Made by a program: the position numbers and the translations under genes | Part shown: positions 8,925-58,992 of the stretch, one piece after another | Layout of the letters: each line of letters starts with the position of its first letter | Numbering within the stretch: the first letter of the stretch is position 1 | The notes under the pieces: model-generated | The model's input: only the letters and a program-made list of their open reading frames with translations | The model's database searches: none | Told to the model about the DNA's origin: nothing | Virus record (IMG/VR): IMGVR_UViG_3300023117_001979 | Reading direction: 5' to 3' (one strand) | From: an uncultured virus (IMG/VR IMGVR_UViG_3300023117_001979) | Lineage: Duplodnaviria > Heunggongvirae > Uroviricota > Caudoviricetes | Length of the DNA: 64,000 bases

Positions 8925-8942
8925 AAGAAACTACTAAGATGA

Positions 8943-12547: not shown

Positions 12548-13012
12548 CTATTGCTTATGTTGGTTGCAATACTGCTCTCCGGCCTTAGGGGTGCGGCCAC
12601 ATTGTCGACCACTTTTGTTAAGCCCCTGACAGCGGGACTCGTCATAGACTAGCTCATCGCTCTCATAGGTGTACACTTCAGGCTCTTCTTCAGCCATCAC
12701 TTCTTCGATTACATCCTCTTGCTCTTCAGGAGTCAATTCAACGGGTTCTTCAGGAGCATTGTCTGTGAAAATTTCCGCTTCAGGCACTCCATCCATTTCT
12801 GCGAACCCATCAAGAAAATCAGTTGCTACCTCATCGTCGGGGTATTCAAAGACTTCATCGTTTGTTAATGTGGAAGTCATAATAGGGTCGTCAGATGGGA
12901 ATGCAATTTCCTCTAGGGCTGTGATTAGATTACGGGCGTAGTGCCAAAATAAAACAACATACAAACCTAAGAGGGCAAGAATGCCTGTTAAGACTTCTTC
13001 GTTTTCAAACAA
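12548..13012 (-). CDS. N-terminal TM, acidic linker, C-terminal Cys/His zinc knuckle protein
   Basis: CQGLNKSGRQC...YCNQH at the C-terminus. Confidence 0.65.
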   Translation of the reverse strand: MFENEEVLTGILALLGLYVVLFWHYARNLITALEEIAFPSDDPIMTSTLTNDEVFEYPDDEVATDFLDGFAEMDGVPEAEIFTDNAPEEPVELTPEEQEDVIEEVMAEEEPEVYTYESDELVYDESRCQGLNKSGRQCGRTPKAGEQYCNQHKQ

Positions 13013-13190
13013 GTTTCATCCTCTCCTCTTGTTGGTTTTCTAAAGTTGACAAAAAAGCGTCAAGAATGCCAGGAGCAATTTCTCCATTCATGTATTGGCG
13101 ACTCCTCTTTGTCAAGTCCTTTAGTATTATACGATAGTGGTTGCACCACCATTCCAATTGTTTCTTTTCAAATTCTTTCAATTCATTCAT
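13005..13190 (-). CDS. hypothetical protein
   Basis: Abuts neighbouring minus-strand genes. Confidence 0.55.
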   Translation of the reverse strand: MNELKEFEKKQLEWWCNHYRIILKDLTKRSRQYMNGEIAPGILDAFLSTLENQQEERMKLV

Positions 13191-13414
13191 TAATAGCCCT
13201 CCATTTCTTTTATTTCTTCTCTTATTTCTTTGTGTTCTGCTTTCATATCTTCGATTTCCTCGCGCAATTCTTCTAAGCTATCCCGTTCAGCCAATAAAGC
13301 GGCTTTGCGACGGGTATATTCATCTATCTTTGCTCTAATTTTAGACGAAAGGGTCCACTCTTTTGAGCGTAGCCCGGACAAAGTTACCTTAGGCATGTGA
13401 TAAACTAGCTTCAT
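13190..13414 (-). CDS. small coiled-coil protein
   Basis: 74 aa, charged heptads. Confidence 0.6.
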   Translation of the reverse strand: MKLVYHMPKVTLSGLRSKEWTLSSKIRAKIDEYTRRKAALLAERDSLEELREEIEDMKAEHKEIREEIKEMEGY

Positions 13415-13433
13415 GGTGAATATAAAACTAATT

Positions 13434-13670
13434 TCAGCAGTCAGCGTATAGCGTTTCCATCAATTCCTTATCTCGGTCTGCATAAAAAATTTCATGCTCG
13501 CAACCATAGCAAATGGTTTTGTTACCGCGCATGACTAAGAAGTCTTGATTACTTTCATCGCAAAGCTCGCACTTCGACACCGACTCACTTCCTGTTAGAC
13601 AGAAATTGCATTCGTGCTTCGCCCTGCTCAATGGTCGCTTGTGGCGGCGGAAGCATGGGCATAAAGTCAT
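13434..13670 (-). CDS. small Cys-rich (zinc-binding) protein
   Basis: Four CxC/CxxC pairs. Confidence 0.5.
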   Translation of the reverse strand: MTLCPCFRRHKRPLSRAKHECNFCLTGSESVSKCELCDESNQDFLVMRGNKTICYGCEHEIFYADRDKELMETLYADC

Positions 13671-14279
13671 TCAAAGTTAGGGCTTTAATAGCGGGGTTGG
13701 GCAGTTTTGATTGCATGGAGTTAACGCTAACTGAGGGAAGCTTATCAACATTACTACTGACTCCGATTCTCCCATTCAAACCTCTTATTGGCCATTTTCG
13801 ATGCATCGGAAGCATGTTTCTTTCGACGACTTATATAGTGCTTAATTGCTAAATCTCGGCAAGGAAAGCATACGGCATATACGCCGAATACACTGGCCGC
13901 CCCACCGCAAATATCACATGGCTTTGTTCCCATGTTCCGACTTAGCTTCACTTTGAACAAGAAGGAATCGGTCAGATTATATCTTAGATACTCTTAGCTC
14001 AGTTTTGCGAAATATAGAATTCTGGAGAGTTTATTTCTGAATATTCCTACTAGTTTACTATCTGACATATGTCAGTTTGAAAAACAACGCACCTTTATTT
14101 TTTAGTGGACAATTATTTTTTCTCAAATTTATTTTTAGACTACTAAAAACGCTATACTGAACTTTGTATCAAATGTAAAAATTATTTTAATTTTAAGAAT
14201 ACTGACCTCGCCCCCCTTGGCGAGCTAAGTAAAAAAAGTAAAACTAAACATTAAACTAATGCAGTGTTGCGTTTTTTTC

Positions 14280-14579
14280 TTATTCTTCTTCTAATAAAAC
14301 GCCCACCACTCGATAAACTGATGACGGATAACGCTTGTTTATGCCTTTACTGAACCTTAAGTCCACAATTTCGATGAAATTTTCTTTCCTTAAGCGGTTC
14401 AAAGCCCCAGTAACAGTTTGCACAGTAATATTCCAGCGATAGTACGACCACATTTCTTTTTTGACATGTGGCAGCAAGTCACGAGCAGTAAAAGTTTCAT
14501 TTCCTTTCTTTATAACTGCATTCTTCGCAGCTTTGTACACTCGGCGTCGCTGGGCTAGAATATATTCTGAATCAGGCAT
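14280..14579 (-). CDS. winged-helix DNA-binding protein (start reassigned to MPDSEY)
   Basis: FTARDLL...TVQTVTGALNRLRKENFIEIV...SVYRV is a typical wHTH pattern. Confidence 0.6.
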   Translation of the reverse strand: MPDSEYILAQRRRVYKAAKNAVIKKGNETFTARDLLPHVKKEMWSYYRWNITVQTVTGALNRLRKENFIEIVDLRFSKGINKRYPSSVYRVVGVLLEEE

Positions 14580-14580
14580 T

Positions 14581-14808
14581 TTACTCACCCATATGGTAAC
14601 CACAGTACTTTTTCGAGCCAAACTTTCTCCAGTGCTTACAAGGCTTTTGTCCATATACACCAAATTTACTAGAAGCATGACACTTGTATTCTTCCGGTGG
14701 TTTTGTATTACGCCTGCAATAAGCACACACTGGATAGAAGCCTTTTTGCTCATACGAGCTTCTTAGGACATTGAATCGCTTATCACAAATTAAACATAGA
14801 AACTTCAT
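14581..14808 (-). CDS. small zinc-finger protein
   Basis: CxxC pairs plus C..C..CxxH. Confidence 0.55.
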   Translation of the reverse strand: MKFLCLICDKRFNVLRSSYEQKGFYPVCAYCRRNTKPPEEYKCHASSKFGVYGQKPCKHWRKFGSKKYCGYHMGE

Positions 14809-15015
14809 TTACTCACTGTCCCAGCTTTCCCAGTTATTGGTTACTGGCTCGTGCGTTTCTTCTTCGGGATATTTGTCAGCCGTATATTGCTTAGTAATCT
14901 GAGTCAAGACTAAGGTATTCAATCGCCCTATGGCGTTTGCCTTAGCGTTAATACGAATGACTACCCAAAAGGTAGCTAGAGAAATCAAAGCTGAAAAAAG
15001 ACCCCAATCAATCAT
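14809..15015 (-). CDS. small membrane protein
   Basis: N-terminal TM, GGAGGT RBS. Confidence 0.55.
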   Translation of the reverse strand: MIDWGLFSALISLATFWVVIRINAKANAIGRLNTLVLTQITKQYTADKYPEEETHEPVTNNWESWDSE

Positions 15016-15470
15016 GGGTCAACCTCCAAATAACAATCGAGACACTTGATATTGGTTACTACGACTGCCTTTGCGCGTTGCTCATCACGGCTAAATGGTG
15101 AAAGGGTCCAATGGTTGCGAACCCCTGTGAATTTGACCGCGTAATTACAAATGCGCTCAGACGCCCCCATAATACAATCAATACGGACTCTTCGTTCTAG
15201 GTTAGTGCAAATACAACCTCTTTCGATAATGCATTCCTTACACATAACACGCTCTTCTGTATCGTTTTCAACTTCGCCATCACAGTCTTTGCACATAAAC
15301 AAAGCACAATTCTTAGAAGTGCAATCTCCGATTAAGTGTTGGCCTTCATAGCCAGCATAATGAGGACACCAACAATCGCAGCTATCGCTTGAGTTATGGC
15401 CGCAGACTAGCTTTGGGTCATGATAGTCGTCATAAGACGACCAGCTCCAGTTGTCAGGATAATTTCTCAT
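15012..15470 (-). CDS. Cys-rich hypothetical protein
   Basis: 152 aa, multiple CxxC, AGGAGA RBS. Confidence 0.6.
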   Translation of the reverse strand: MRNYPDNWSWSSYDDYHDPKLVCGHNSSDSCDCWCPHYAGYEGQHLIGDCTSKNCALFMCKDCDGEVENDTEERVMCKECIIERGCICTNLERRVRIDCIMGASERICNYAVKFTGVRNHWTLSPFSRDEQRAKAVVVTNIKCLDCYLEVDP

Positions 15471-22397: not shown

Positions 22398-25135
22398 CGA
22401 ACATAGCAATTTGTGAGCAGAACCCAGGATATATGGGTCGAATGAACGATGGAAAAAGAGTAGCAGTAAGGTCGAGGGATGAACACGGCAACCGGAAGGT
22501 TGACTTCTATGAGGTCCCAGCGGAGTGCTACATTGATTTGAACAACTTCGCTGAGCGATACACTTGGGATGGTCAGAAGAGAGTTAAGTGCAACCCAGCT
22601 AAGGATGTTTTCGACCCTCTTTCGTTTCTTACACAGGACTGGCGTATGGACCGAGCAGGCATCATTGATGTTGAGCCAGGAAAGGGAAAGACCATTGAAA
22701 AGAAGCCTCTCGCTCGCATCACTTTCAATTCTCGTTCTGATTTGCGCAGGTTCCTAAAGGACTACACCCCTGTTTATGGCGCTGACCTTGCACAGGAGGA
22801 CATTTGCGCTATCAGGTATGAAACCGGAAACGAGGACTTTGAGCTACACAAGTGCTACTTTGATATTGAAGCTGTTCAGTTTAAGCGTGATGACCCACTT
22901 AAGGCAGAATGGTTGGTTGATTGGAAAAAAGAAATTTGGCACGACCAGCAAATGGTCAACTCTATTGTTGCTTACGATAACTGGTTGGACACTTACTTTG
23001 TCTTTGCCTGCCATCCTTCGTGGGATGAGGAAATCAACAGTGATACTGACGGGTCTCGACGCATTATCGAAAAGAAGCACAAGACTGAGAAAGCCATGCT
23101 TACCTCTTTTGCTGAATGGTTCTACAAAGCTGACTTCGATGTTATCACTGGATGGAACAGTGCGGGCTATGATATGTCTGTTCTTTACCACCGCATGGAG
23201 TCGCTTCGTGTGCCTCACTGCATGAATGGTGTTCACTTTGAGAACGGACTTATGCCTCGTGAAGTCTACGGTGGAGGTGCTATGTCTCCTTACGGTATCA
23301 TGGATGAGCCGTTTCACAAGGGTGGTCGTGAATACCTTTGGCAACAACAACCACTACGAGGGGTAGACCACCTTGACATGATGGTTGCATTCAAGCGTCT
23401 TTACAAAGACTCCACTAACAACGAATTGGTTTCTTCCCGTTTGGGTCGTGTTGCTCAATTCCTTGAATTGCGTGAAGGAAAGCTAGAATCTCCCGATTTC
23501 TATTCAAAAGACTATCACATTGGCTGGGAGGAATTCCGTAACTACAACATTCGGGATGTAGAATTGCTCGTGCAAATCGACGATGCCTGGAATGTAATCG
23601 GCTCTTACAAGACGGTGCAACAGCTAGTCGGTTGTCAGCTCCGCTCTACTTTCTATGCTACTGGACTTGCTCGTGTCATGTTCAACGAAGAAGCATACTG
23701 GAAGCAGCGAACCTATCCCTATGAGCATGAGTTTGAAGATGACGATGACGACCTTGAGGGTGCTATCGTTCTTGACCCCGAAGAATTGGACTCAGTCGGG
23801 CTACATGACTGGACTGTTATTCTTGACTTCGCCGGTCTATACCCCTCTATCATGTGTGCATACAACACATGTCATTCTTCTAAGGTGCGACCAGGAATGC
23901 CTCACTTAGATGATGATATGATAGGACATAATGGTGTTCGTTTCCGTAAGAACCCTGTTGGTGTTCTTCCCAAGATGGTTCTTCGTCTTGACGAGCAAAG
24001 GGATGAATACAAAGCGAAGCTGAAAGAAGCCGAAGCTGCTGGTGACAAGGTAGCAGCCCGAAAGTGGAACGCTATGCAGCTTTCAGTCAAGCGAATGAGG
24101 GCTTCTTTCTACGGAATCATGGCTTTCCCTAAGTTTTCCTGGTATGACCCTGATATTGCTAAGACCATCACTATGGGTGGTCGCAATGCACTTCTTTCTA
24201 TCAAGGCAAAGGCCGAAGAAGCAGGGTTCAAGGTTGTGTTCGGACACACTGACTCTATCTTCGTTACTATGCCTAAGGAGTGGACTCAGGAGAAGGTGTA
24301 TGAGGAATCTATCACCCTCGCTAAGCAATTGACTGACCATGTTCAAGCCCAATTACGGACTGACAAAGTCGTAGTTGAATTAGAGGCTATCATGGACAAA
24401 TATTTCATCGCTAAGAAAAATCGCTACGCTGGTCGTAAGGCGTGGGATGACAAGAAGGGTTTCCTCAACCTTGACTTCTCCGAAGACGGTTGGCCTGAGG
24501 TTTCCAGGAAAATGTCAGGCATGGAGGCGAAGCAAACCAACACTGCACCTGTTGGTCGTAACATTCAGTTGCAGACTTTGGGTCGTATTTTTAACGATGA
24601 ATCGCCAAGAGAAATCCAAGACAGCATTAAGAATCTTGTAGTTGATGTTCGAAATGGCAACATTGACGACAATGAATTAGTCGCAAATGCAAAGCTCAAC
24701 AAGTGGCTACCACATCATGTTGATTGGCACTGGGGCTATGAGAAAGAGTGTGATTGCGGAGAATGCCCCGAACCAAAAACTGGTGACCAGCGTGACGACG
24801 ATGATTCCTGCTATGCCAAGAAATTTTGGTCTGCTACCGCAGCATTGTTCCACAATGATGTTCTTTCTGACGACTCAAAGGGGTATGTGAAGCTCGATAA
24901 GGGTGATTCGTTTAGCTGGGTGCATGTTTGTGATGGGCCGACTGCGATTCCTAAGGATGGTTGGGTTGGTTTCTATGACCTAGAGCAAATTGCTGACTAT
25001 ACCCTGGATTACGCACTTTTGGCTGAGAAGCATGTAATCAAGAAGCTAGAGAACATCTACTTTGGTATGGGTTGGGACATTAACGAATTGTATGAAAAGA
25101 AGCGCTATTCTCTTGATGACTTCCTTTCAGCATAG
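22394..25135 (+). CDS. polB: family B DNA polymerase with 3'-5' exonuclease
   Basis: ExoI FDIE, ExoII GWNSAGYD, ExoIII YNIRDV; motif A DFAGLYPS, motif B K...SFYG, motif C GHTDS, KKNRY. Confidence 0.96.
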   Translation: MTNIAICEQNPGYMGRMNDGKRVAVRSRDEHGNRKVDFYEVPAECYIDLNNFAERYTWDGQKRVKCNPAKDVFDPLSFLTQDWRMDRAGIIDVEPGKGKTIEKKPLARITFNSRSDLRRFLKDYTPVYGADLAQEDICAIRYETGNEDFELHKCYFDIEAVQFKRDDPLKAEWLVDWKKEIWHDQQMVNSIVAYDNWLDTYFVFACHPSWDEEINSDTDGSRRIIEKKHKTEKAMLTSFAEWFYKADFDVITGWNSAGYDMSVLYHRMESLRVPHCMNGVHFENGLMPREVYGGGAMSPYGIMDEPFHKGGREYLWQQQPLRGVDHLDMMVAFKRLYKDSTNNELVSSRLGRVAQFLELREGKLESPDFYSKDYHIGWEEFRNYNIRDVELLVQIDDAWNVIGSYKTVQQLVGCQLRSTFYATGLARVMFNEEAYWKQRTYPYEHEFEDDDDDLEGAIVLDPEELDSVGLHDWTVILDFAGLYPSIMCAYNTCHSSKVRPGMPHLDDDMIGHNGVRFRKNPVGVLPKMVLRLDEQRDEYKAKLKEAEAAGDKVAARKWNAMQLSVKRMRASFYGIMAFPKFSWYDPDIAKTITMGGRNALLSIKAKAEEAGFKVVFGHTDSIFVTMPKEWTQEKVYEESITLAKQLTDHVQAQLRTDKVVVELEAIMDKYFIAKKNRYAGRKAWDDKKGFLNLDFSEDGWPEVSRKMSGMEAKQTNTAPVGRNIQLQTLGRIFNDESPREIQDSIKNLVVDVRNGNIDDNELVANAKLNKWLPHHVDWHWGYEKECDCGECPEPKTGDQRDDDDSCYAKKFWSATAALFHNDVLSDDSKGYVKLDKGDSFSWVHVCDGPTAIPKDGWVGFYDLEQIADYTLDYALLAEKHVIKKLENIYFGMGWDINELYEKKRYSLDDFLSA

Positions 25136-28100
25136 CGTTTTCCTATCTCTAGGTCTTTACCTGCGGTAATTGCTTCAACCATTCCATCTAGGTTGTCGAT
25201 AGTACCCATAATTGGGTGAACGCGTAGTGACTTTCCTGGGTCTTCTCCACCTATTCCACCTAGTAGTGAAGTAGAGTTAGCGACCATGTGTCCACTCTTT
25301 CCTAAGCCTGAAAGGTAACCTGTACTGCCCATATTATCAATCAAAGCATCAATGTAGCGAATGTCTAAGTCACCTAGCCCGGATTTACTATTCATCTGCT
25401 GGTTAAAAATTTCTTTAATACCCGCTAGAGCGGCTTCGAGACCAAAAGAATGAGCAATCCAAAAGGGGTCATTACACACGGTTAGGTACTCATCATAGTA
25501 CTCGCCAATTAACTCATATGCGTTCTCCATCATTGGGTTTGTTTTACCTGGCTTTGGCTTAGCGGGTCCTTTAATTACAATAGACCAACGCTCAGGACCA
25601 CCTGTTGGGTGAGCACCATGCTCACTAAATGCTCTTCCTCCGTTTATTAGGCCATGAATTTGATACTTGCCTAGTGACTCTTTCAATACAAGTAGGTATG
25701 AATCAATATCTAAGTATTCAGGAGTACCATGCGTTCTAACTCTTAGGCCCCCTTCTATTTCATTTACTGAAAACACTGGGCTATGACTGCTACCTTTGTA
25801 AGTCAAGTACTCTTTAACGAATTCCAAGTCCACTTCAAAGGTGTTTACTACTTCCATATCGAATACAATATCTATGGCTCGCTCATCAGATAGATACCTA
25901 AACACAGTCGCTATGTCATCTATGTAAAGTGTCGAACAGAAGTTAGCTAGCTTCTTAGCGTAATATTCATCATTGTATTCTTCTTTCAAAAAGTACTGCG
26001 TCACTGGTTGTTGAATGGCGGAGCGTGACAAATCTAGAATCTGAATAATACGGTCTGTTGTGGGCACTGTTCCTTTACCACCACCGTGAAACGCCCTAAG
26101 CCCAGCTTGTGTTACTGGTTCACCAACATTTGCAGCTCCTGTTGCACCAATCATTTCACCAGCGCGAGCTTTGCTTTCATTGTAATACTCGTAAGCGCGA
26201 GCAAAGTATTCAGCAGGGTTTTCAATTTCTCGCGCTTCGAATTCGGGGTCAATTTTTTCGCGCAGCCTTGACGAAATATTGAGGGGCAATCGTCCTAGCT
26301 TGGGAGTATTTTTGTACAGTGTTCCATCTTGACATGTGTCACATTCATCAAACAGTGTAATTCCATGCCTACACAGCTGTGACAAAAAGTGTGGCTGAAG
26401 TGAAAGTGAAAGTCCGTCTGAGTTATCGGGTCCTCGCGCATGGAATGGTTGAATCCCATCTTCACCAACTTGTAGCGACAAAACCTTGCCCAATCGCATA
26501 TTTACCAAATAGCCTCTATCGTCAATCATCAAGTTTTCAGATGCGCGCTTAAGTCGATGCTCAAGATAGCCCGACTTTTGAATCGCGCCCATTGATGATT
26601 CCATCGCGACGCGGCGGCCAGCGACAGACGCAAGGAAGTATTGTTCAGGAGAAAACCCAGTAGCATAAGAGTCCGGATTAAAGCCAAAAGCTTCTCCTGA
26701 GTAATCACCTTCTTTGAAGTGTGGCAGTAATCGACCTACCTTATTACCACTCATCAACCGGTTTCCACCTACTCTCACTTGCCCATATGCCCCTGACATT
26801 TGCTGAATGTTCAAATCACTAGCACGGGCCCCTGAAACAACTGCAATAGCCATTTGGTTTGCTGTACCTTGCAGCTCTTTGGTAAGTTTGATAATTTCAT
26901 CATCAAAGTCATTAGTGATATTTGCTACTTGCAATTCCATCCATGCAAGCGGGTCGTAAGTAAGCCAATGTCGGGAGTTTTCGGTGAAATAGTCATCAGG
27001 TAGGTTCTCTAGAGTCCTGTTAAAGAAAGCCTCAGTTATAACCCTAATTTTTTCATTCGCTTCGTCATAAAGTTGCTTCTTTTTCTCAATAAACTCAGGA
27101 GCGCTGAGCGATACATCCTCGATACCAATAGTATATCCGACATACAAATGAGCGGCGAAGAATAGACGATTTATGTGGTCAATGAAATCTGCTAGCATTC
27201 TAATGCCCAGCTCGTAATTAAAGTGATAAACAAAGGCAGCTCCTAGCACCATTGACCCGTTTTTGACACCCTTTGCATCAAGAGTACCATAGAGAAGCTT
27301 GCCGTTTTCTATTCTTGCTTCTGCTCCAGTTTTGTCTTTCCAAACACAATTAATTCCTTCGGGAATGAACATAGACACTACGGACTTGCCAGTGTAAAAC
27401 TTCTTGTAGTCAGGTTCGGGTAATGACTTGATGTAACTGAGGGTTCCTTCGTCATCTCTAGTGTACACTAGTCCGAGCATTTCAATGAGAGCCTTCTTCG
27501 AGAAGTAAACATACCCGTCTTTGTCGTAGCCGATTCCCCCTACTTTGTTGTAAGTACCATACGGCCCCTTGAACGACTTTTTGTCATCGTCTTCAAGCCG
27601 TTGATAGTCATTGTAAGAGATTTCTATTTCGTTGCCCTTCTTATCCTTGCCCCGATATACCAACTTGCTCTTGTTAGGGAAAGTAAGCAAGTAGGCACCT
27701 GATGTTTCGTCTTGGTCAGAGGCAATAGTAGGCCTACCATAGCGAGAGTGAATAATTTGCTTATTTACATCTAGAATATCTTTTGCTTCTTGGATAGCTT
27801 CGGGTGACTGTGGCACAAAGCAACGCATAGTATCGCCATCGTAGTCTGCGTTAAACGGCACACAAATAGTAGGGTTGAAACTAAATGCATGTTGTTTGAG
27901 CGGAACCACCTTGCCTGCCATTACATTCTGACGATGAAGAGCAGGGGCGCGGGTAAAAAGAATAATGTCGTGCTTTCTTAGCCCTCTATGAACAATATCG
28001 CCAATTTTGAGAGTGTCTGCTAAAATGGTGCGGAGGCTCTTTCCATACTCGTATCGATACTCTCGACGCGCCTGTTTGATTTCTTTTTCTTTACCTGCCT

Positions 28101-30111
28101 GGTCATCCCTACCACGATACTTGGCATTAATTCCTCTTAGAATCTCTTGATACCATACATTTTGTGCTTCAGGGTTTACCTGCCTCCCCAAAGAATCCAC
28201 TTCGAATGGGTCATAACGACTATTGGTTTCTTGTAATAGGCTAATTTTTCCTTTGCGAGCGCTCATCTTTTCAATATACTTGGCACCCCCAAAGTAGTTT
28301 TCAAAATCCCAACTATCGAGAGGTATTATTCCTTTTTTATCAGGTGGACAACCTTTCTTAACTGCTTCTCGCAAATCTTCGATATTTTCCTTTGTGACCC
28401 GCTCAGCAACAGTCATGCGAATACATGCTCCCATAGGAACACCGACTTCGTCTATTCTAAGCGAAGGGTTAGGAGTGATTACAGAATACATAGTATGCTC
28501 AGTGACTTTGGACTGGTTAATTCTTCGGATGTGGTTTTTCTTCTCCCCCGCTGGCTTAATGCGGTCATAAACGCCTTCTAGTGCTTCAGTTACTAGTCCA
28601 CTCCCGCCAAACTTTTGCTTTACAGCAGGTGTGCCAAACGGGCTTTGTGAAGTAAGAGCCTGAGTGCAGGCCTTGAACAAAGTACTCTCGCTACGAGCGA
28701 ATTTGGCTTGGTCCTCATACATGTCCAGGAGCTTCTGATTCACTCTTACAATGTTGATATACAGCTTGTCTAAGTCATTCATTTCTAAAGCACCATTAGG
28801 AGTTTCTTGTGGTGGGCGAACAGTGTTAGGTGCAATTGGAAATACATCCCAAAACAAGTAACTTGGGTGTGAGCGAGGTGCTCCTGTTAATTTGTCAACT
28901 TCAGTATTGAAGCTCAAAGCTAGAGCATGGTCGTTGGGGATTTTCTTCAAAGACTGGTAAACTACATCATATCGGTATACTTCTTTTCTTGGGAATTCAT
29001 CTTTTGCTCGTTCACCAGGCTTAGGAAAAAATTCTGCAGGCCGCCCAAATCCATATTGCATCTTAAACATGAGAATAGGGCTCTTTTCATCACAGTGCGG
29101 GCAGTGATTTACTTTCGTACTTAGGGGCGTCTTAACTGGGCCACCTTGGGCGATTTGATATGGCCCCAGGTCTCTTTTTGCTTCTCTGTAATAGTATTGG
29201 TAAGTTTCAGCAATAGACTTCCAAATAATGGCTGAGCCTTCCGGGCTAGTCATTTTGTTTTCATACATGACTTTCTTTGCTTGAGCAATTAATGGCTCTA
29301 AGTACTCGTCAGGCAAGACAACCTTGTGGCAATTTCGACATGTATATTTGAGAGTCTTTACTAAAGGCGAAGAATCAATATCACCGGTCAAGTAAAGGTA
29401 ATTAGGGACTGGGACTGCTAGCTTTATTCTTCCAAAGTGCCCTGGGCAGGAGTATTCCTTTGCCCCTTCTATGTTTGCAGTATGTCCACATGTGTAACAA
29501 GCATTACGCCCATGACTTCCAAGTCTTAAATCAGCTACCCCACCATGAATTGGTGCAGGTATGTCAGGAATCATCGTTTTACTTTGGCGCGGGGTTTCGT
29601 ATACTTCAGCATGGCGGATAACTCGGTCTCCACTTAGTAGCATAATTTCTTCAGGGCTCATCATATGATGATAGATTGCCCCTACTGCTTTTGATTCTTC
29701 ATGTAAGGTAGTGTTTGGATAAACTAGAAATCGAGCAGAAATTGGTCCTTCAATTACATAGCCTTCAAAATCAGTTTCAATCTGAACCCGGTCTGACACA
29801 TCTAGAATCTCAGTATATAGCCAATCTTCAGGTTCCGGGTCTCCGTTAAGGTAACCAGCTGTATCTTCAAAGGGCTTATTTGCTATTTTGCAGATAATTA
29901 GCGGCCCTACTTTACTTCGTAAGTTAGCGGCGTTTGGCGAAAGACGATACCACCGATATGCTTCACCTGAAGTCCTAGGAACCCATCGGATTGTGTCAAG
30001 ATTAAATTGAATGTATTTTTGGTTGTCTATCTCTTCTATTTCGTCTTTGCTAAAGAACCAATAAAACTCCTTAACTAGAGGAATTTCATTAGTGGTGTCT
30101 TGAATTACCAA
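25105..30111 (-). CDS. rpo1: DNA-directed RNA polymerase largest subunit (fused Rpo1N+Rpo1C / Rpb1-like)
   Basis: Clamp Zn sites CYTC...CPGHFG and CRNC...CPHC; RAPALHRQN; catalytic PFNADYDGD; SGARAS..NIQQM; bridge helix ...KSGYLEHRL; trigger loop GEPVTQAGLRAFHGGG. Confidence 0.95.
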   Translation of the reverse strand: MVIQDTTNEIPLVKEFYWFFSKDEIEEIDNQKYIQFNLDTIRWVPRTSGEAYRWYRLSPNAANLRSKVGPLIICKIANKPFEDTAGYLNGDPEPEDWLYTEILDVSDRVQIETDFEGYVIEGPISARFLVYPNTTLHEESKAVGAIYHHMMSPEEIMLLSGDRVIRHAEVYETPRQSKTMIPDIPAPIHGGVADLRLGSHGRNACYTCGHTANIEGAKEYSCPGHFGRIKLAVPVPNYLYLTGDIDSSPLVKTLKYTCRNCHKVVLPDEYLEPLIAQAKKVMYENKMTSPEGSAIIWKSIAETYQYYYREAKRDLGPYQIAQGGPVKTPLSTKVNHCPHCDEKSPILMFKMQYGFGRPAEFFPKPGERAKDEFPRKEVYRYDVVYQSLKKIPNDHALALSFNTEVDKLTGAPRSHPSYLFWDVFPIAPNTVRPPQETPNGALEMNDLDKLYINIVRVNQKLLDMYEDQAKFARSESTLFKACTQALTSQSPFGTPAVKQKFGGSGLVTEALEGVYDRIKPAGEKKNHIRRINQSKVTEHTMYSVITPNPSLRIDEVGVPMGACIRMTVAERVTKENIEDLREAVKKGCPPDKKGIIPLDSWDFENYFGGAKYIEKMSARKGKISLLQETNSRYDPFEVDSLGRQVNPEAQNVWYQEILRGINAKYRGRDDQAGKEKEIKQARREYRYEYGKSLRTILADTLKIGDIVHRGLRKHDIILFTRAPALHRQNVMAGKVVPLKQHAFSFNPTICVPFNADYDGDTMRCFVPQSPEAIQEAKDILDVNKQIIHSRYGRPTIASDQDETSGAYLLTFPNKSKLVYRGKDKKGNEIEISYNDYQRLEDDDKKSFKGPYGTYNKVGGIGYDKDGYVYFSKKALIEMLGLVYTRDDEGTLSYIKSLPEPDYKKFYTGKSVVSMFIPEGINCVWKDKTGAEARIENGKLLYGTLDAKGVKNGSMVLGAAFVYHFNYELGIRMLADFIDHINRLFFAAHLYVGYTIGIEDVSLSAPEFIEKKKQLYDEANEKIRVITEAFFNRTLENLPDDYFTENSRHWLTYDPLAWMELQVANITNDFDDEIIKLTKELQGTANQMAIAVVSGARASDLNIQQMSGAYGQVRVGGNRLMSGNKVGRLLPHFKEGDYSGEAFGFNPDSYATGFSPEQYFLASVAGRRVAMESSMGAIQKSGYLEHRLKRASENLMIDDRGYLVNMRLGKVLSLQVGEDGIQPFHARGPDNSDGLSLSLQPHFLSQLCRHGITLFDECDTCQDGTLYKNTPKLGRLPLNISSRLREKIDPEFEAREIENPAEYFARAYEYYNESKARAGEMIGATGAANVGEPVTQAGLRAFHGGGKGTVPTTDRIIQILDLSRSAIQQPVTQYFLKEEYNDEYYAKKLANFCSTLYIDDIATVFRYLSDERAIDIVFDMEVVNTFEVDLEFVKEYLTYKGSSHSPVFSVNEIEGGLRVRTHGTPEYLDIDSYLLVLKESLGKYQIHGLINGGRAFSEHGAHPTGGPERWSIVIKGPAKPKPGKTNPMMENAYELIGEYYDEYLTVCNDPFWIAHSFGLEAALAGIKEIFNQQMNSKSGLGDLDIRYIDALIDNMGSTGYLSGLGKSGHMVANSTSLLGGIGGEDPGKSLRVHPIMGTIDNLDGMVEAITAGKDLEIGKRYAERKSSRE

Positions 30112-30550: not shown

Positions 30551-30817
30551 TCAAACACCCTTTATTACACGATACTTGACCTTTGTACGGGCTTCTTCTC
30601 TATCGCTATCTTCGGGGCTAAACTTACTTCGGACAACGGTTATCTTTACTACTGAGTCAATCGGCGTTTCTTCACCTTTCATTCGTAAGTGACTAAGCGC
30701 CGCGTCTTCATACATTAGGGCTGGCAGCTCTTCAATTTTAATTGAAAGAGCTTTCAAAACAGCATCTGCTTCTATGGGCGAAAGAACCTGGTGGTCGGGC
30801 ATCAAGTAGTGCATCAA
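30551..30817 (-). CDS. rpoH: RNA polymerase subunit H (Rpo5/Rpb5 C-terminal domain)
   Basis: HYLMPDHQVLS..E...L..L.I..EELP.L...D.A...VVKI...S...YRVI. Confidence 0.88.
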   Translation of the reverse strand: MMHYLMPDHQVLSPIEADAVLKALSIKIEELPALMYEDAALSHLRMKGEETPIDSVVKITVVRSKFSPEDSDREEARTKVKYRVIKGV

Positions 30818-45959: not shown

Positions 45960-46884
45960 AACCGGGGGAGGAGTAATATCCAAACTCGGTTTTTTATTAG
46001 GCGTGGACAATGTGTGAAGGAGCAAGTACTTCGGGAAAGTGAATTCACACTAAGCTGACTCTGAGAGTCGGTAACGCTGATGATGCCCGACCTCCGTGCC
46101 TTCATGGCCTGTAACCGGAGGCGGGACTTCGACACATCGGGATGGCAGAAATACTGTGAGAGAGCAGTTAGATTGTCGCATGAGTAAGCAGCCGTCGCGC
46201 TGCAAGAGACTGTCAACTGGCAGTTTCGTAGACTGGAGACAGTTGCTCTAAGGGTGGAAGCAGTCAGAAGCTTCCTTGAGGGTAAACCATAATCCCTCTC
46301 CCTGTCCCGATAGTTAGACACGGTAAAGGCGGCGGTTTCGAAGACCAAAGCCTAGTGTTTGAAGGTGACTGAATGTGGGCAACTGAACTGCCCTAAAGTA
46401 CTGAGATGAAGCGGCTGGAGCAATCCGAAGCAAGGCAAGGAGTGGGTGACCACTTGAGCCTACAACAAATCTCAGGTCGGATGCAAGAAATTGTACTTTC
46501 TCATCATCCGTGGGAGTGCCAATGGCCCCCCTTCACCTTTCTAGTGTAGTAAACAAGCCGACCAAGATTAATTTTGGTTTCGGTGGATAATAGAAGCACG
46601 GCAATAAGGGCTAGTACCCGGAGTCGTGAACGACAGGAAAAGAGGAGAATACTCCTCCCTGGGACTACACACAAAGTGTGGAATTCTGATTCATTAAGCA
46701 GCATACGCAAGCTGTGAAGAAAGAATGAAACATAGGAATAGCTTTCCATTAACGATTGTATGCTGGGCGCAGCGCATGATTGGGATAGTGAAAATTGCGG
46801 ATTTATTCGTGATTCTTCCTACTTGCTACATTCCCCCCTGGGAATGAGCTAATAAGTCTTGAAATTGTAACGGAGGTCTGAAAA

Positions 46885-46968
46885 ATGGCCTCAAAACCGT
46901 TGAAAGACCTTTTCGATGAGCAGTCTGAATTATATGACAGCTTATTCGGAGATGACGCCAAGTTGTAA
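46885..46968 (+). CDS. 27-aa small ORF MASKPLKDLFDEQSELYDSLFGDDAKL
   Basis: GGAGGT RBS 7 nt upstream; manual translation. Confidence 0.45.
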   Translation: MASKPLKDLFDEQSELYDSLFGDDAKL

Positions 46969-46997
46969 AAATGACTTTGGCAATTCAAAAAATTCCT

Positions 46998-47033
46998 GGC
47001 GCATGTCTTACGGCATGCGCCTAAATTTTTTTT
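46998..47033 (+). terminator. hairpin + T tract
   Basis: GGCGCATGTC-ttac-GGCATGCGCC then taaaTTTTTTTT. Confidence 0.65.
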
Positions 47034-47057
47034 CTTATACTTGTACACAGGTCATTA

Positions 47058-47277
47058 CCTACGACCTCAATAAGTGGCACCACTGCGTCCCACCTGTGTT
47101 CAAGTGATGAAGTTGGGGTCGTAGGGAAGAGGGCAACAAAACCCCTGGACAGCTTTCCTGGGCGAGAATGAAATCGGGTCACCTAACCTGGTGGAGTTCT
47201 GACCTTAATGGATTACAAGACTTGTCTTGTTCCGGGACGCACGAGGCTTCACAACCTCGTGGGCTCTTGAACGCAGG
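47058..47277 (+). ncRNA. multiply pseudoknotted or switchable RNA element upstream of the DUF1257-like gene
   Basis: Three mutually crossing helices of 13, 8 and 12 bp. Confidence 0.6.
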
Positions 47278-47579
47278 GGTGTCACACCCAGTGTGGAAAC
47301 TGCCGTTTAGGCGGTTAAAACATTACAGACTACCTATTTGGTAGCTGTAAATTAATAATAAGATGCCTTTAGGCCGTGACCGAAGGTGTAGCAGGTACTC
47401 AGTTCTAATACAGGTACCTTTTATTTCATATTAAACATTAATATGGGGTAAAGAAGGTGGTTTAATATTGCCAAGGCTTTTTAGCCGAGGAGAACATGAA
47501 GCTATTGAGGGTGCAAACCCGTAACGAAAGTCAGATAGCAGGGTGGGATAGGCCACCTCCCATTAGGAACGGTAATAAT

Positions 47580-48128
47580 ATGAGTACAACTCAGAAAATT
47601 TCCATTAAGGGGCTCAAAATCGGTGAAGACCAATTTGAGCTTCTTGGCGAAACCGTCACTGAACTTGTCGGTGAAGCCGGAACAGTAACTATCAAAGAAA
47701 AAGGTAGTGAAGGACTCCTGATTAGGAGTCGACACCATGTGTCAGCAAATGCTAAGTTTGCTGACATTAAAATTCGTTTTCATGGTGCCAACTCAGATGT
47801 TGGTATCTATGTTGACGCAGATGGCCAAATTGGAATGGCCTGGGACGGATATGTGGTTCGTGGAAACGACCAAATGAAATCTGTCTTTGAAGGACGGTCT
47901 GACCGTCATACTTTTGAACGCAACTTGAACGCTATGTTCGTTGCAAAAACATTTGAAGAGACTGCAGTCCGTAAAGGATTCAGTACCTCAGGTGTTAAGC
48001 GTGTCTCACTCAAAGAAGAGAAAATGGGACAGTTTGAACTTGAGCTTGACACCGGTGGCCTTGGCTTCGGTGGCTTTGGAAACACAAATGAAAACACCAT
48101 GACTAACTCCCTACGAGGTGGTTTGTAA
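47580..48128 (+). CDS. DUF1257/Ycf35-like protein (start reassigned to MSTTQ)
   Basis: ADIKI...DVGI....G....WD.Y...LNAMF......A.RKGF pattern; next to a DUF2997-like gene. Confidence 0.6.
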   Translation: MSTTQKISIKGLKIGEDQFELLGETVTELVGEAGTVTIKEKGSEGLLIRSRHHVSANAKFADIKIRFHGANSDVGIYVDADGQIGMAWDGYVVRGNDQMKSVFEGRSDRHTFERNLNAMFVAKTFEETAVRKGFSTSGVKRVSLKEEKMGQFELELDTGGLGFGGFGNTNENTMTNSLRGGL

Positions 48129-48344: not shown

Positions 48345-50240
48345 ATAAGGAACGGTAAATATCCCTTGAGGGGGCGTCAGCCCCCAATGAAAAGAAAAAT
48401 TCTTTTCAGCCGCTGCGAGGAACACTTTCGTGTTCCTAGCCGCGTGATGAAAAGAATGACACATAATGCTAATAATGTCCTATGACAAAATATGCCGCGC
48501 TAAGGAACACGCAAGTGTTCCTCGCAGCGGCTGAAAAGTAGAAAACGAAACACAAGTATCGACACAGCGGTCGACAAAACTTCGACGAAGTTTACCCGAC
48601 GGTAATAGATACACTGTTTCTGAAATTATGATTGCTTTGATGCTTGAGGAGCTGAAGATGGAGATAAAAAGGTGCCAATCAGGTACCTGACACATATCAT
48701 CTCAAGTCTAGACCATAATATCCGCGGCTACCAATCTGAAAGATGGTGACCAAGATATTTGGAAATCTTTCCCAGAAGATTCCTGGACGGTACTGAGATT
48801 CCAAACTCTGGCTCTGATTAACTTTGAGACATGTCAAATGTCAGAATCCAATAATGCAAGCACTATAGCTTGCCATGGATGAATACGATACGGCTGGATT
48901 GTGGTGAGTAACCACAGTAAAATTTTGCCAGGGCACACACTCTGTGTTCTGTCTTGCCCAGTGGACCACAAGAAAGATGATTTCATGATGGCCAAGTTAA
49001 TCGAAACAAAAGGTCAACTTGCACCTGGTAATTGCCCGGTGTATGGAGAGAGCTCGCGAGGTTGCCACTGCGCAACTAAGCACTAAGAGTTACGACCGGC
49101 CTCTTCCTGAAGAGACAACTACTAGTATCAAAAAATCGTGTTACTGAAAAGCTATTCGAATAAAGAAAGACCACAGTGTCGCGACATTGCAGGTTAGTGC
49201 CACCATGGCACGACTACTGAACACCAATGTCTACAGAGACCTATTGGTCGTCGAAATGAGCCGAGCATCTATCTTGACATATGTCAGGATAGAGAACATT
49301 GAGTTCTAGTTTTGGTAAACCAGCTGGTAATACAAGCTGGAAATACAAAATAAAGATTCGAATAAAGAAATTCACTAAGTCTACTTGCGGAACCAGCGCT
49401 ATGGACAAGATGGTAACAGCAAGATGATTGCAAATAGCCAGTACTTGTAACCATAACACATGTCACGAGTTCTGAATTCACAATCGTGAAGATATTACTC
49501 AACTACAGTAGCTGCACCGCATAATCGATGGATAAATCAAAACATTAGCAAAATACATCTTAACTCCCGTTTTGGCACATGCCAAAACACTGGTAAAGAC
49601 TATTTGAGAGTGAGGGGGACCTTGGTCTATGAACCAAAGGTACCCCGAAACCGGTGTGAAAAAGACTCTGTCACTAATGCCTGCATGGCACGGTACAGAA
49701 CCTTTCGTTATCGAACCAGAGAAGAACTTCGGTTCCTCTAGTACCAACGCGGATTAGTGGTCCGCCTCTCACAGGGGCACCATTACGCAACTGAAATTCT
49801 AATCGATTAACGAAATAAAATCAGGTAACTAAACTTCCTAGAATTCTAAAGATACGACGAGTACTTGCAAAGAATGTAAACAGAGTTTACACACAGCAAT
49901 GTCGTCACAATAATTTAGAGCCCTGAGGACGAGGTTACTTAAATCCACCAAATTTCCCAACTGGAGTTGCTCCAGTAAACTGAGGAGCTAATAGATGCTC
50001 CAAATGTCCATACAAGGATATTCAGAAATTACTCTCGCGCGCTGAGGCGCCACTAAGAAAACTTGCAACACTGCAGCAGCGGCGTTGCAACTTCTTTGCC
50101 ACACATGGTCAGGTAGCTTGTACAAAGCATGCTGCCATGTAATAGATATACGACATGTGTCACGCATGGCGGGTCGATTTCACCCTTTCCTGTCCGGGAG
50201 GGTTGCCAATCGCCCGTGGTACCGATTCCGCCAGTTTGAA
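48345..50240 (+). ncRNA. putative ~1.9 kb hairpin-dense non-coding region 3
   Basis: Only short ORFs (82 aa or less) in any frame; many short palindromic hairpins. Confidence 0.55.
48402..48538. repeat. 26-bp perfect inverted repeat
   Basis: CTTTTCAGCCGCTGCGAGGAACACTT (48402-48427) / AAGTGTTCCTCGCAGCGGCTGAAAAG (48513-48538). Confidence 0.95.
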
Positions 50241-54325: not shown

Positions 54326-55018
54326 GTGGCCAAAATTAAAATGGACCCGATTACTGGTAATATTACCCATATCGATGGAGTACAATTACTGGTTCCAATA
54401 TCAATGATAGATTGGACAAAGGCGACTCAGACTTATACTTCTTCATGTATTGAATACATAGAAGAAAGCTACAAAGCACAAGAAAAATGGAACAGTGCTA
54501 TTGGTGATTCTGAGATACTTAGTCTAGTCAAAAAGCATGTTGGAAAAGAAATTCTTGAAAGATTACAAGAAGAAAAGGGCTTTAGCTTGGTTATCGTCAG
54601 ACCTACTGAAAAGTGGGAAGAGCCAGGTTATGAAGAGCCTCAAGCAGAAGGATTGGTCAATTTAAACGACCTTAGACGAGTTGAGATAATTTGTATCGCA
54701 ACTGACCTTCTAAAAACTAAAGTACGCCGTCAAAAAACTAGCATAAACAATGCTACTAAACGGCGTCAACTTGCTATTTCTGTTGAAGAAATACAAGCAG
54801 AATGCAGAAAACAGTTGAGTTTCCCAACGAAAACTGTCTCTAGAGTCAAGGGCGTTAAGGGTTCTGAAGAACCTCATGACACTGATAATATTGATGAATT
54901 TTATCTAGAGAGCATTCCCGATATTCTTATTCAGGAAGGATGGAAACGGTATACAACTGAAAACTCCTTCGTACCCGAAGTAAACAATCACCCTTTTTGG
55001 GGGTCTTTGGATGAGTAA
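54326..55018 (+). CDS. hypothetical protein
   Basis: GTG start in ATAAGTG. Confidence 0.7.
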   Translation: MAKIKMDPITGNITHIDGVQLLVPISMIDWTKATQTYTSSCIEYIEESYKAQEKWNSAIGDSEILSLVKKHVGKEILERLQEEKGFSLVIVRPTEKWEEPGYEEPQAEGLVNLNDLRRVEIICIATDLLKTKVRRQKTSINNATKRRQLAISVEEIQAECRKQLSFPTKTVSRVKGVKGSEEPHDTDNIDEFYLESIPDILIQEGWKRYTTENSFVPEVNNHPFWGSLDE

Positions 55019-55433
55019 GATTTGCACCATTAGAGGGTGCAGAAGAAAGGTTCCTTCATTCATTAAAAATAATCCTAAGGGCGAGCCGCTTTGTGCAGTT
55101 CATCATGGGTTACAAGTTAGAATGGAAGAAGATAGAATCACTTGTACTATTATTGATTGTACAAGCATGGCTTATTCAGGCGGTCTGTGCAAAAATCATA
55201 GCCACAGCCCGCGTGAACCCCGTATGGACTTAACAAAGTGGCATACAGAAACAAGACAGGACAAACTAAAGCTGACTCTAGGTAATGTACTTAGAAACAA
55301 GCGTCCTTTGCACTTGCTACAAATGAACGACTTCAATTGTCTTTATTGTAATGGAGATGCTCATAGCTCTCTTGGCGCAAGTCCCCCTCATTGTTGCCCA
55401 GTTTGCTGGGCGAAGATTGAAAAAATTAATTGA
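55011..55433 (+). CDS. Cys/His-rich zinc-finger protein
   Basis: Repeated CxxxxC...CxxH units. Confidence 0.65.
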   Translation: MSKICTIRGCRRKVPSFIKNNPKGEPLCAVHHGLQVRMEEDRITCTIIDCTSMAYSGGLCKNHSHSPREPRMDLTKWHTETRQDKLKLTLGNVLRNKRPLHLLQMNDFNCLYCNGDAHSSLGASPPHCCPVCWAKIEKIN

Positions 55434-57636: not shown

Positions 57637-57643
57637 GGTATAA

Positions 57644-58435
57644 GTGGGACTAGAAATTAACCTACAATTTACTGCAAAATCCGTGGCGGAGCTTAGAGAA
57701 CAGCTGACAGCTGCTTTGAGTGAGCTCAACGGAAGCGCAGTGGTGGAAACACCAAACAAGGCTACGAAAACCGAGAGGCCTAGTGCTGAGACTCCTAAAA
57801 AGGAAAAGAAGCCTAAAAGGCCTAAGAAAACGGTAAGGCGACCTAAAGCGCCAAAGGCTAGCTTAGAATGTAAAAGCTGCAAAGCAACGAGCACCCCTCA
57901 ATGGCGCCGTAAAACGGCTCCTGAAGGGCCTCTTTGTAATGCATGTCACATGAAGCTATACAAAGCTGAAAGAGCGGCCAAAAATAGCCCAAAAGAGAGT
58001 AGTGCAGAACGGTCTAGGCGGATTCGCCAAGAAAAGATTGGGTCTGCAGCTGCCTCAAAAAAGAAAAACAAACCTAAGGTAGAGAAGCTAGAGTTTGAAC
58101 CTGCTGAAAAAATCGAAGCGGATATGTCCACTGAAGCATTTTACTTGTGGGCCCAGTCATACTTGCCAGGAATGGTGATGCGTGACAAAACCTTCCTTGT
58201 TGCTTCTAAGGTCATTGAGACCTGGTTTACTACCCTAAGGCCACAGTCTGAATATGACAAGTGGTGTCTTAAAAATTTACAAACATTTACTGATGAAACT
58301 CGTAAGATGTTTGAAGTTTACCAAAAGGTACACCCTACCATTTTGATGATTCAAGATGCCGGGGACAATGTTGTACTTATGGTGAATAACCCGTCGGCCC
58401 TGACTTTTTCAAAGTTAGAAGGCCTACTGGAGTGA
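57644..58435 (+). CDS. GATA-type zinc-finger protein
   Basis: CKSC-KATSTPQWRRKTAPEGPL-CNAC (CX2CX18CX2C with TPxWR and LCNAC), flanked by Lys-rich segments. Confidence 0.85.
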   Translation: MGLEINLQFTAKSVAELREQLTAALSELNGSAVVETPNKATKTERPSAETPKKEKKPKRPKKTVRRPKAPKASLECKSCKATSTPQWRRKTAPEGPLCNACHMKLYKAERAAKNSPKESSAERSRRIRQEKIGSAAASKKKNKPKVEKLEFEPAEKIEADMSTEAFYLWAQSYLPGMVMRDKTFLVASKVIETWFTTLRPQSEYDKWCLKNLQTFTDETRKMFEVYQKVHPTILMIQDAGDNVVLMVNNPSALTFSKLEGLLE

Positions 58436-58439
58436 TTTT

Positions 58440-58787
58440 ATGACTGAAGAAGAGGAAATCGAAGTTTATTTCCCTAAAGGTGAACACTTAGGTGTTCACA
58501 TAGAATCCCCTGGAGCAGCCCTTTTGATGGTTACTCCTCTAGAGGGTGAGCGTTTCAGTCAAAGATTCGTAGTGTTGCTCCATTTTGGCGAAAACACATA
58601 CAAGCTTGTACTTTCATGGTCCCCTTCCCGCGCAGGGGAGGAACGCATTCCATGGGGGACTTTAGATGGGAAGGAAATCGACCCAACTAAGCACCCACTA
58701 TTTGGAACGAAAAATGAACAAGCTGGTTTATATCACAAAACTCTTCCACCGGGCTGTTATGTAGTCCGAGAAGAAATCAAGGTATGA
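58440..58787 (+). CDS. hypothetical protein
   Basis: GGAGTGA RBS. Confidence 0.65.
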   Translation: MTEEEEIEVYFPKGEHLGVHIESPGAALLMVTPLEGERFSQRFVVLLHFGENTYKLVLSWSPSRAGEERIPWGTLDGKEIDPTKHPLFGTKNEQAGLYHKTLPPGCYVVREEIKV

Positions 58788-58794
58788 CCAATAA

Positions 58795-58992
58795 GTGAGT
58801 AACGAAAGTACTTTACAAACTAGTCTGCTAGAGGCTTCAAACGAAAACAATCGTCAATTGAAGCGAATTGCAGATAGCTTGGAAGAACTCCTTTCAATGA
58901 TAAAGGGCGTTCAACCAGCTGAACTTGCGAAAAAGGCAAAGGAGCACAAAAAAGCTCAATCAAATCTGAAAAGGAGGCGAAATAATGAGTGA
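58795..58992 (+). CDS. small coiled-coil protein
   Basis: GTG start in ATAAGTG; LKRIADSLEEL. Confidence 0.65.
   Translation: MSNESTLQTSLLEASNENNRQLKRIADSLEELLSMIKGVQPAELAKKAKEHKKAQSNLKRRRNNE

Follow-up and report, generated by a model that had tools for sequence, protein, structure and literature searches.

GATA fingers are treated as a family of eukaryotic transcription-factor domains, and the locus described here raises the question of what such a finger is doing in a genome of prokaryotic appearance. The locus lies in a 64,000-nucleotide (nt) stretch of DNA from an uncultured virus (IMG/VR record IMGVR_UViG_3300023117_001979), referred to below as the window, in which an open reading frame (ORF) starting at GTG encodes a 263-residue protein (Table 1). 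An initial annotation of this DNA had described a eukaryote-type GATA finger in the protein and had speculated that the finger recognises a short (N)ATAAG motif found at gene starts. Here, we show that the protein has at its centre a true GATA-type zinc finger, with a conserved basic tail behind it. As to its function, we estimate a probability of roughly one half that the protein is a sequence-specific double-stranded DNA-binding protein regulating some genes of the element that carries it.

Two Cys pairs separated by 18 residues (CX2CX18CX2C, residues 76-101) stand exactly where the initial annotation had read them, and a GATA finger is defined here by a spacing of CX2CX17-18CX2C. Pfam assigned residues 76-103 to PF00320 (GATA) with an E-value of 8.9e-8 and 32.0 bits against a curated gathering cut-off of 26.8, so that the profile match the annotation had called for was indeed found. 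The only other Pfam row for the 263-residue protein was a sub-threshold cytochrome c3 match. Relatives of the protein scored 27.4-39.7 bits with PF00320. When all PDB chain sequences were searched with phmmer, 16 of the 17 matches at E<=1 were DNA-binding domains of GATA factors (best 1.2e-9), comprising GATA-1, GATA-2, GATA-3, GATA-4, AreA, plant GATA18 and a chain whose record says no more than 'GATA-type transcription factor'; the seventeenth was an unrelated chain at E 0.88. With a profile built from the fingers of 20 relatives, 16 of 16 GATA factors were matched at E<=0.01, and the lowest E-value was 3.1e-17.

The residues that are conserved point the same way. The T-x-W-R and C-N-A-C signatures are present and align residue by residue with GATA-3 and GATA-1 in phmmer, relative to which the 18-residue loop carries a one-residue insertion and the family finger has Gln (Gln86) at a position occupied by Leu. 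Across 22 homologs, C76, C79, T84, W87, R88, C98, N99 and C101 are invariant, and the basic region that the initial annotation had noticed behind the finger is conserved as well. The window's six frames hold seven CX2C...CX2C stretches, one of which is GATA-like. An AlphaFold model of the whole protein reached a mean predicted local distance difference test score (pLDDT) of 70.2, with 72-81 across the finger, and a model of the finger alone reached 79.8. The best 14 Foldseek rows for the latter were all GATA fingers (probability 0.85-0.99, root-mean-square deviation (rmsd) 1.7-7.3 Å); 12 of these aligned over 32-41 columns at 1.7-2.5 Å and 36-50% identity, including the fingers of AreA, GATA1, GATA3, GATA4 and AtGATA18. 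The whole-protein model returned no Foldseek rows at E<=0.001. In the predicted models, the domain thus reproduces the fold of solved fingers, with a zinc knuckle, two short strands and a helix.

The finger sits in a protein whose ends, rather than its middle, identify the family. A word-indexed search of 5.8 billion proteins recovered 22 homologs, from marine metagenome sources and contigs of up to 139 kb; PF00320 was precomputed in all 22 and PF07508 (Recombinase) in two. A scan of Joint Genome Institute metagenomes gave 30 loci, to which one locus in an archaeal metagenome-assembled genome (MAG) was added (L001-L031 in total). A profile of the C-terminal domain, run without word filter against 1.84 billion representative proteins, found 15 proteins only; among the 11 of full length, nine had a GATA finger, one had Recombinase domains only and one was without a Pfam match. 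The family is therefore small and confined to one lineage of elements, and the GATA finger is its usual middle module. Searches elsewhere returned little: tblastn of the protein against 50,697 phage records gave nothing at E<=1e-3, and a scan of IMG/VR viral contigs gave 26 pattern matches and no confirmed one. A word-indexed search with the finger region alone (residues 62-131) returned two family members only and is uninformative on the nearest relatives outside the family.

An ortholog with the finger is present at 25 of the 31 loci and one without it at six (L001 and L027-L031). These six keep the N-terminus and the C-terminal domain, apart from the L030 ortholog, which is cut at its 5' end, and at the place of the finger they have a second Recombinase-like stretch; PF07508 was confirmed by Pfam on L001 only and read from the translations in the others. 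L028 shows an additional helix-turn-helix by eye. The C-terminal domain of L027 is 48% identical to that of the window and close to those of finger-bearing members, so the exchange of modules occurred within the family. Together, these comparisons show that the N- and C-terminal parts define a small family restricted to these elements, and that its middle module is exchangeable, being a GATA finger alone, the finger combined with one Recombinase domain, or a pair of Recombinase domains to which a predicted helix-turn-helix is sometimes added. Between the first 30 residues and the finger, the alignment shows a variable linker, with an insertion of about 100 residues in some members.

The C-terminal domain, of about 105 residues, was modelled as helix-strand-helix-helix-hairpin with a pLDDT of 84-91. 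Its best VIA-align scores (Z 6.3-5.0) were to E2F8, SelB, SSV1 F-112 and winged-helix domains of the MarR/ArsR type, and its order of secondary-structure elements agrees with such a fold; this suggests, without proving, a winged helix. The ESM Atlas gave no usable match to the domain. The catalytic resolvase domain PF00239 was matched neither in the protein (E<=1) nor in the L001 ortholog (E<=0.01), and Pfam gave no PF07508 match in the window's version of the protein.

Table 1. Features of the GATA-finger locus, in window positions.
Feature	Position	Strand	Basis or remark
GATA-finger protein gene	57644..58435	+	263 codons open, 263 aa, GTG start
ATAAGTG gene-start motif	57640..57646	+	overlaps the GTG start of the GATA-finger gene; its TAA is in frame
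Conserved N-terminal region, aa 1-30, with predicted helix aa 14-29	57644..57733	+	alignment, model; kept in finger-less orthologs
GATA-type zinc finger, CX2CX18CX2C, aa 76-103	57869..57952	+	Pfam, PDB sequence matches, Foldseek
Helix and basic tail, aa 104-131, invariant R123 and R128	57953..58036	+	alignment, models
Conserved C-terminal domain, aa 157-260, winged-helix-like, family-defining module	58112..58423	+	model, VIA-align, profile
Downstream 115-aa ORF	58440..58787	+	without a motif of its own

An in-frame TAA directly precedes the GTG of the GATA-finger gene, and the first Met codon of the ORF comes only after the finger. All 20 distinct ortholog start contexts keep the same arrangement of ATAAGTG and GTG; at these 20 starts, synonymous third-position changes set in from codon 2 on, and conservation of the N-terminus begins at the GTG. 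The codons that immediately follow the GTG are therefore translated, and the GTG must be part of the RNA. RNA contigs 57662-58786 (run X1) and 57662-58828 (run X3) cover both the GATA-finger gene and the 115-aa ORF, which probably share a transcription unit, and in L001 a small ORF likewise lies 3' of the ortholog. The GATA-finger gene is the first in a short unit that begins at the ATAAGTG motif.

What kind of element carries this gene? The window encodes a TCP-1/cpn60 chaperonin, or thermosome (E 2.6e-137), a family B DNA polymerase (PolB), RNase H, a resolvase-type serine recombinase, GmrSD and PD-(D/E)XK nucleases and an AAA ATPase. A 1668-aa fused protein resembling RNA polymerase (RNAP) subunit A, with all five Rpb1 domains, is encoded at 25105-30111 (-), and adjoining it at 30551-30817 (-) is an 88-aa protein with an Rpb5/RpoH C-terminal domain. 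No capsid, portal or terminase was recognised by Pfam and PHROGs among the 74 ORFs of the window. Many genes have GGAGG-type ribosome-binding sites, and 19 of the 74 in this heuristic gene list start with GTG. These two features, together with the late first Met codon and the N-terminus conserved from the GTG, led us to reject a eukaryotic host. The PolB is about 25% identical to that of haloarchaeal tailed viruses in the phage collection, and the relative L001 was found in the GTDB genome 'MAG: Methanobacteriota archaeon isolate NP128'. Small ORFs with non-GATA CX2C...CX2C zinc modules also occur at 12548-15470 (-) and 55011-55433 (+), and small proteins that bind zinc are numerous in the element.

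Relatives of the magroviruses of Marine Group II archaea have been described as 'group D', in passages that list DNA polymerase B, thermosome, resolvase and an archaeal-type RNA polymerase A and in which no morphogenetic block was identified (Philosof et al. 2017, PMC5434244). Passages of later papers add that group D elements are found preferentially in the cellular size fraction and could be of a plasmid-like kind (Xu et al. 2023, PMC10160649); group D has also been called lacking in major capsid protein (MCP-lacking; Prabhu et al. 2025, PMC11706807). Placed by published description alone, the window fits 'magrovirus group D', elements of viral or plasmid-like character associated with Marine Group II archaea (Poseidoniales), in line with the initial annotation's picture of a eukaryote-type finger in a prokaryotic-style genome. 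At 13-279 (+), the window has an ORF fragment with a Peptidase_G2 intramolecular-chaperone domain (E 3.2e-14) and a PHROG match to 'pre-neck appendage'; judged from sequence, this tail-spike-type feature may hint that the 'MCP-lacking' element makes virions.

The RNAP A-like protein gave partial matches only against the phage records, covering at most 24% of the query; the annotated ones were bacterial beta-prime subunits and several were unannotated. The sole match to Rpb2_6 (RNAP B) in the element-bearing MAG was a 1244-aa frame on contig C1. Perhaps the element refits the polymerase of its host and does not encode a full enzyme; alternatively, it may have a B subunit that has diverged too far or is missing from the assembly. 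A 1130-aa ORF at 5532-8924 (+) was considered as the RNAP B of the element and rejected, having no Pfam, PHROGs or PDB sequence match. On the related contig C15 of the MAG, a long frame is cut by the contig end at one end.

Contig C15 also carries a second GATA family. The MAG that holds L001 gave one PF00320 match above the cut-off (35.2 bits), on this separate contig, which mirrors the RNAP/PolB region of the window with frames of 1672 and 916 aa side by side. The finger belongs to a separate 131-aa protein (L032 1330-1725 (+), equivalent to G001:C15 ~27.3-27.7 kb) made of two zinc modules, of which the N-terminal one has four Cys and the other is a CX2CX16CX2C GATA finger. Fourteen members make up its family, with GATA precomputed in ten and contigs of up to 145 kb, and Gln occupies the position of the window family's Gln in nine of 12 aligned members. 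A six-frame CX2C...CX2C scan found no counterpart of the 131-aa protein in the window. One cluster of the small protein and one cluster of orthologs have the same longest contig, of 133,848 bases, which suggests, but does not prove, that some elements carry both GATA families. Six-frame searches with PF00320 gave one genome above the cut-off among 301 of the MAG's order and one among 401 of the phylum, in both cases through the element contig C15, and none in 14 control genomes; these archaeal sets are samples with many incomplete genomes, and the finger was not found in those searched apart from the element contig.

The gene-start motif that the initial annotation had called abundant, and had seen in front of the GATA-finger gene too, is real and specific to the element. 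ATAAGTG occurs 23 times in the window against 9.2 +/- 3.0 expected, and none of 100 shuffles reached 23; 20 of the 23 copies are on the + strand, all of these at 34.5-64 kb. At every related locus, the coding strand carries the motif at 5.8-13.8 per 10 kb, and the opposite strand has 0-1 copies. For pooled counts, 254 sites were taken, excluding L002, which duplicates the window, but including several loci that are near-identical; 197 distinct contexts came from a slightly different pool, of sites at least 300 nt from the locus start and without contig C15. An ORF of at least 40 codons runs from the GTG at 86% of the 254 sites, compared with 29% for any GTG. The base before ATAAG is A at 116 of these sites, C at 51, G at 40 and T at 47. 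A conserved TATA-like box or B-recognition-element (BRE)-like box upstream was sought and rejected, information being at most 0.28 bit at every position from -45 to -1.

The motif divides the window into two gene classes, one at 34500-64000 (+) with ATAAG(TG) at short gene groups and the other at 1-34000. Within the 34-64 kb block, ATAAG lies at most 45 nt upstream of 20 of 38 heuristic genes and is fused to GTG in ten. Where it is not fused, it lies 6-42 nt upstream, once with GGAGG in between, and the distance from motif to start codon varies from 4 to 42 nt; genes without the motif directly follow a gene that has it. Across the 1-34 kb block, with its polymerases, chaperonin and nucleases, ATAAG is found at four of 36 genes and is never fused. 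GTG starts are used by 17 of the 38 genes in the first block, as against two of 36 outside it. Fusion of the start codon to ATAAGTG forces a GTG start, and would explain why there are so many if the motif is required in DNA or RNA. In 133 of the 197 distinct contexts, an upstream stop codon ends 6-11 nt before the GTG, and the idea that the TAA of the motif itself serves as the stop codon of the upstream gene was discarded, as it applies in only 25 of the 197. The motif is not a host-wide translation signal either: the 1.2-Mb MAG has 138 copies against 197 of the reversed control word and no enrichment outside the element contigs. With 41 of the 138 on the two element contigs, the motif is a property of the element, not of its host. 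The 15 papers listed by a full-text search for ATAAGTG were all unrelated.

RNA data bear on where transcripts begin. The stretch at 52-62 kb is present in 24 metatranscriptome runs, and 17 of these contain no fewer than half of the words sampled from it. Four runs were compared over 44-64 kb; the runs consist of assembled contigs, in which true RNA ends are not visible. The 32 pieces listed of 107 have 63 internal ends, of which 38 are no more than 40 nt away from an ATAAGTG; random placement would give 4.0, and the highest count in 10,000 draws was 13. At 52-64 kb, 37 of 42 ends are this close. Stretches with no listed RNA contig, like contigs bridging motif sites, were counted neither for nor against. 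Pieces mostly start 6-36 nt past the first base of the motif and end between 32 nt before it and 8 nt after it, so that they coincide with gene groups running from motif to motif, such as 57662-58786. Loose letters, presumably of the library adapter, stand in front of the contig ends at 45534 and 57662 (two runs each) and at 62180, all 22-23 nt after a motif; they also occur at 46011 and 47584, neither of which is near one. We regard these data as a weak to moderate hint that the motif marks the start of a transcription unit or a processing site.

In the same four runs, the deepest-covered part is 46011-47604 (+), which has no convincing ORF. Mean word depth was 230-10,808 in two bins over 46,002-47,335, as against about 10-145 in nearly all others. 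Two tandem full-length matches to the manA RNA family (RF01745) fall here, at 46119-46308 (29.9 bits, E 6.5e-5) and 46341-46539 (33.7 bits, E 4.8e-6), both below the gathering score of 55.2. The stretch is a candidate for encoding structured RNAs that the element makes in large amounts. At 48402-48538, in an ORF-poor region as well, two 43-nt arms with 91% complementarity form an inverted repeat around a 51-nt spacer.

In the reading we prefer, that of a regulator binding double-stranded DNA, the finger would lie in the major groove of a short element-specific site, the basic tail would add DNA contacts as in solved GATA-DNA complexes, and the C-terminal domain would provide dimerisation, a second DNA contact or the recruitment of a partner. 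The protein would control only some of the genes or DNA transactions of the element and would not be a general reader of ATAAGTG, and ATAAGTG in turn would be an initiator-type promoter or an RNA 5'-end mark read by element-encoded machinery. Several observations weigh against this. GATA fingers can mediate protein-protein contacts, as in PDB entry 1y0j; the Foldseek E-values of the finger were only 0.12-0.56, because the domain is short; and the winged-helix assignment rests on Z 5-6.3, graded middling or common by the tool. WGATAR is not enriched in the window (159 copies versus about 175 expected from base composition) and reaches at most 5 per 500 nt, and with sites neither enriched nor clustered a canonical GATA regulon was rejected. 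No GATA-like iterons were found in the ORF-poor regions at 32.3-34.6 kb and 45.3-50.3 kb. As to the motif, the pooled sites include near-identical loci, with 197 distinct contexts in the slightly different pool; eight of 16 motif sites are bridged by at least one listed piece; and the RNA evidence consists of assembled contigs from four runs, probably of one campaign.

The proposal of the initial annotation, in which the finger reads (N)ATAAG(TG) as the specificity factor of this gene class, and which we extend to a factor directing a polymerase there, for instance one with the element's RNAP A-like subunit, is very unlikely. In its favour, the GATAAG bound by fungal GATA factors ends in ATAAG. 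A dedicated reader is needed, since the motif occurs specifically in the element, looks like the start of a transcription unit and has no other conserved box upstream; the Gln in place of Leu, shared by nine of 12 aligned members of the small GATA family, makes an altered specificity conceivable. Yet the motif is as dense at the six finger-less loci (5.8-10.0 per 10 kb) as at the 25 finger-bearing ones (6.2-13.8), and the G needed for a GATA core is present at 40 of the 254 pooled sites (16%) and in two of the 20 ortholog start contexts. The residue after W-R, the second Arg of WRR, varies among R, K, H, M, E and D while the motif is invariant. Strict orientation and fusion to the start codon fit a core initiator or an RNA signal better than the site of a factor. 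The GATA-finger gene is itself behind the motif and so cannot start the class unaided, and in phages such factors generally come from the expression class before the one they serve. The claim of the annotation is thus not supported, given the finger-less loci, the rarity of G and the lack of WGATAR enrichment. The test it had proposed, relatives with the motif but without the gene, came out in part: six loci with a finger-less ortholog do keep the motif, but the only one of these elements that could be searched further has a GATA protein elsewhere, its gene lying in the part of the element without the motif. Two GATA families do occur in these elements, and a bolder version, more doubtful still, would have a GATA protein point an RNAP rebuilt around the element's RNAP A and RpoH-like subunits at an ATAAGTG initiator, with fingers as a resident and diversifying module of at least two families. 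If true, this would be a eukaryote-style pairing of factor and initiator in an archaeal mobile element, and would bear on the origin of eukaryotic GATA factors or on gene traffic between eukaryotes and archaeal viruses.

The exchangeable middle module invites a different explanation, unlikely but with a real chance of being correct, in which the protein goes back to the DNA-binding part of a large serine recombinase and is an accessory of DNA transactions, acting at a few cis sites in recombination, resolution, origin function or partition. Large serine recombinases have a Recombinase domain followed by a zinc module, and it is the position of this zinc module that the GATA finger occupies. 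Many orthologs have one or two PF07508 domains beside the finger or replacing it, the window encodes a resolvase-type recombinase, and L001 has an AAA ATPase upstream and a gene with a primase domain about 7 kb downstream; a DNA-binding module that can be exchanged would suit fast-evolving cis sites. Against this, the window's protein has neither the catalytic resolvase domain nor PF07508, no repeated candidate site was found in the ORF-poor regions, and the neighbouring genes have no function assignable by Pfam or PHROGs. Least probable of all is that the finger binds RNA or a protein partner instead of double-stranded DNA, for example the AUAAGUG 5' ends of mRNAs, aiding translation from GUG. 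A strand-specific motif to which the start codon is fused could act in RNA; the stop codons 6-11 nt before the GTG have a spacing compatible with a translation-level signal; and some GATA fingers, such as that in 1y0j, are protein-recognition modules. However, finger and basic tail match DNA-binding fingers best, orthologs swap the finger for DNA-binding recombinase domains, and we know of no RNA-binding GATA finger.

Whichever function applies, a conserved finger is under selection in an element of abundant uncultured marine archaea and is essentially absent from the archaeal genomes searched, the element contig aside. The locus offers a concrete case of how eukaryote-type DNA-binding domains move between the domains of life, and of gene control in a 'group D' element with an RNAP large subunit and an element-specific motif fused to GTG starts. 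The late initiator-type promoters of large DNA viruses that have their own RNAP, TAAG in baculoviruses and TAAAT fused to ATG in poxviruses, are comparable in being short oriented words at the start of transcript or ORF, with no conserved upstream box and with RNAP subunits encoded by the virus. The present case differs in its archaeal host, in the motif, ATAAGTG fused to GTG, and in a putative transcription start indicated only by contig breaks and a few repeated fragment ends at +22/+23. Large serine recombinases are comparable through the orthologs in which PF07508 directly precedes or replaces the finger, but the window's protein is without both the catalytic domain and PF07508, and its zinc module scores as GATA and not as a recombinase zinc ribbon. 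With magrovirus group D, the window shares DNA polymerase B, thermosome, resolvase, RNA polymerase A and the lack of a recognised capsid module, whereas the relevant passages of PMC5434244, PMC10160649, PMC11706807 and PMC5474096 mention neither a GATA or zinc finger nor a gene-start motif.

A GATA finger in archaeal viruses or magroviruses was not reported in the open-access full texts and bioRxiv records searched. Among viral proteins, a fold search of BFVD gave zero rows at E<=0.001; its rank 2 was a protein of Marseillevirus LCMAC102 that is likewise virus-encoded and named a GATA zinc finger protein, but the match is weak (E 0.094, TM 0.13-0.21) and the source is a giant virus of eukaryotes. 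The closest likeness is to the eukaryotic GATA factors (GATA-1, GATA-3, GATA-4, AreA and plant GATA18), with which the protein shares the four-Cys finger, T-x-W-R, C-N-A-C, the helix after the second Cys pair and the basic tail. It differs from them in its genomic setting, an archaeal virus-like element that uses Shine-Dalgarno sites and GTG starts, in having Gln for Leu, in its unrelated flanking domains and in a genome where WGATAR is not enriched. By sequence and modelled fold, the domain is a member of the GATA-finger family; its context and architecture are new.

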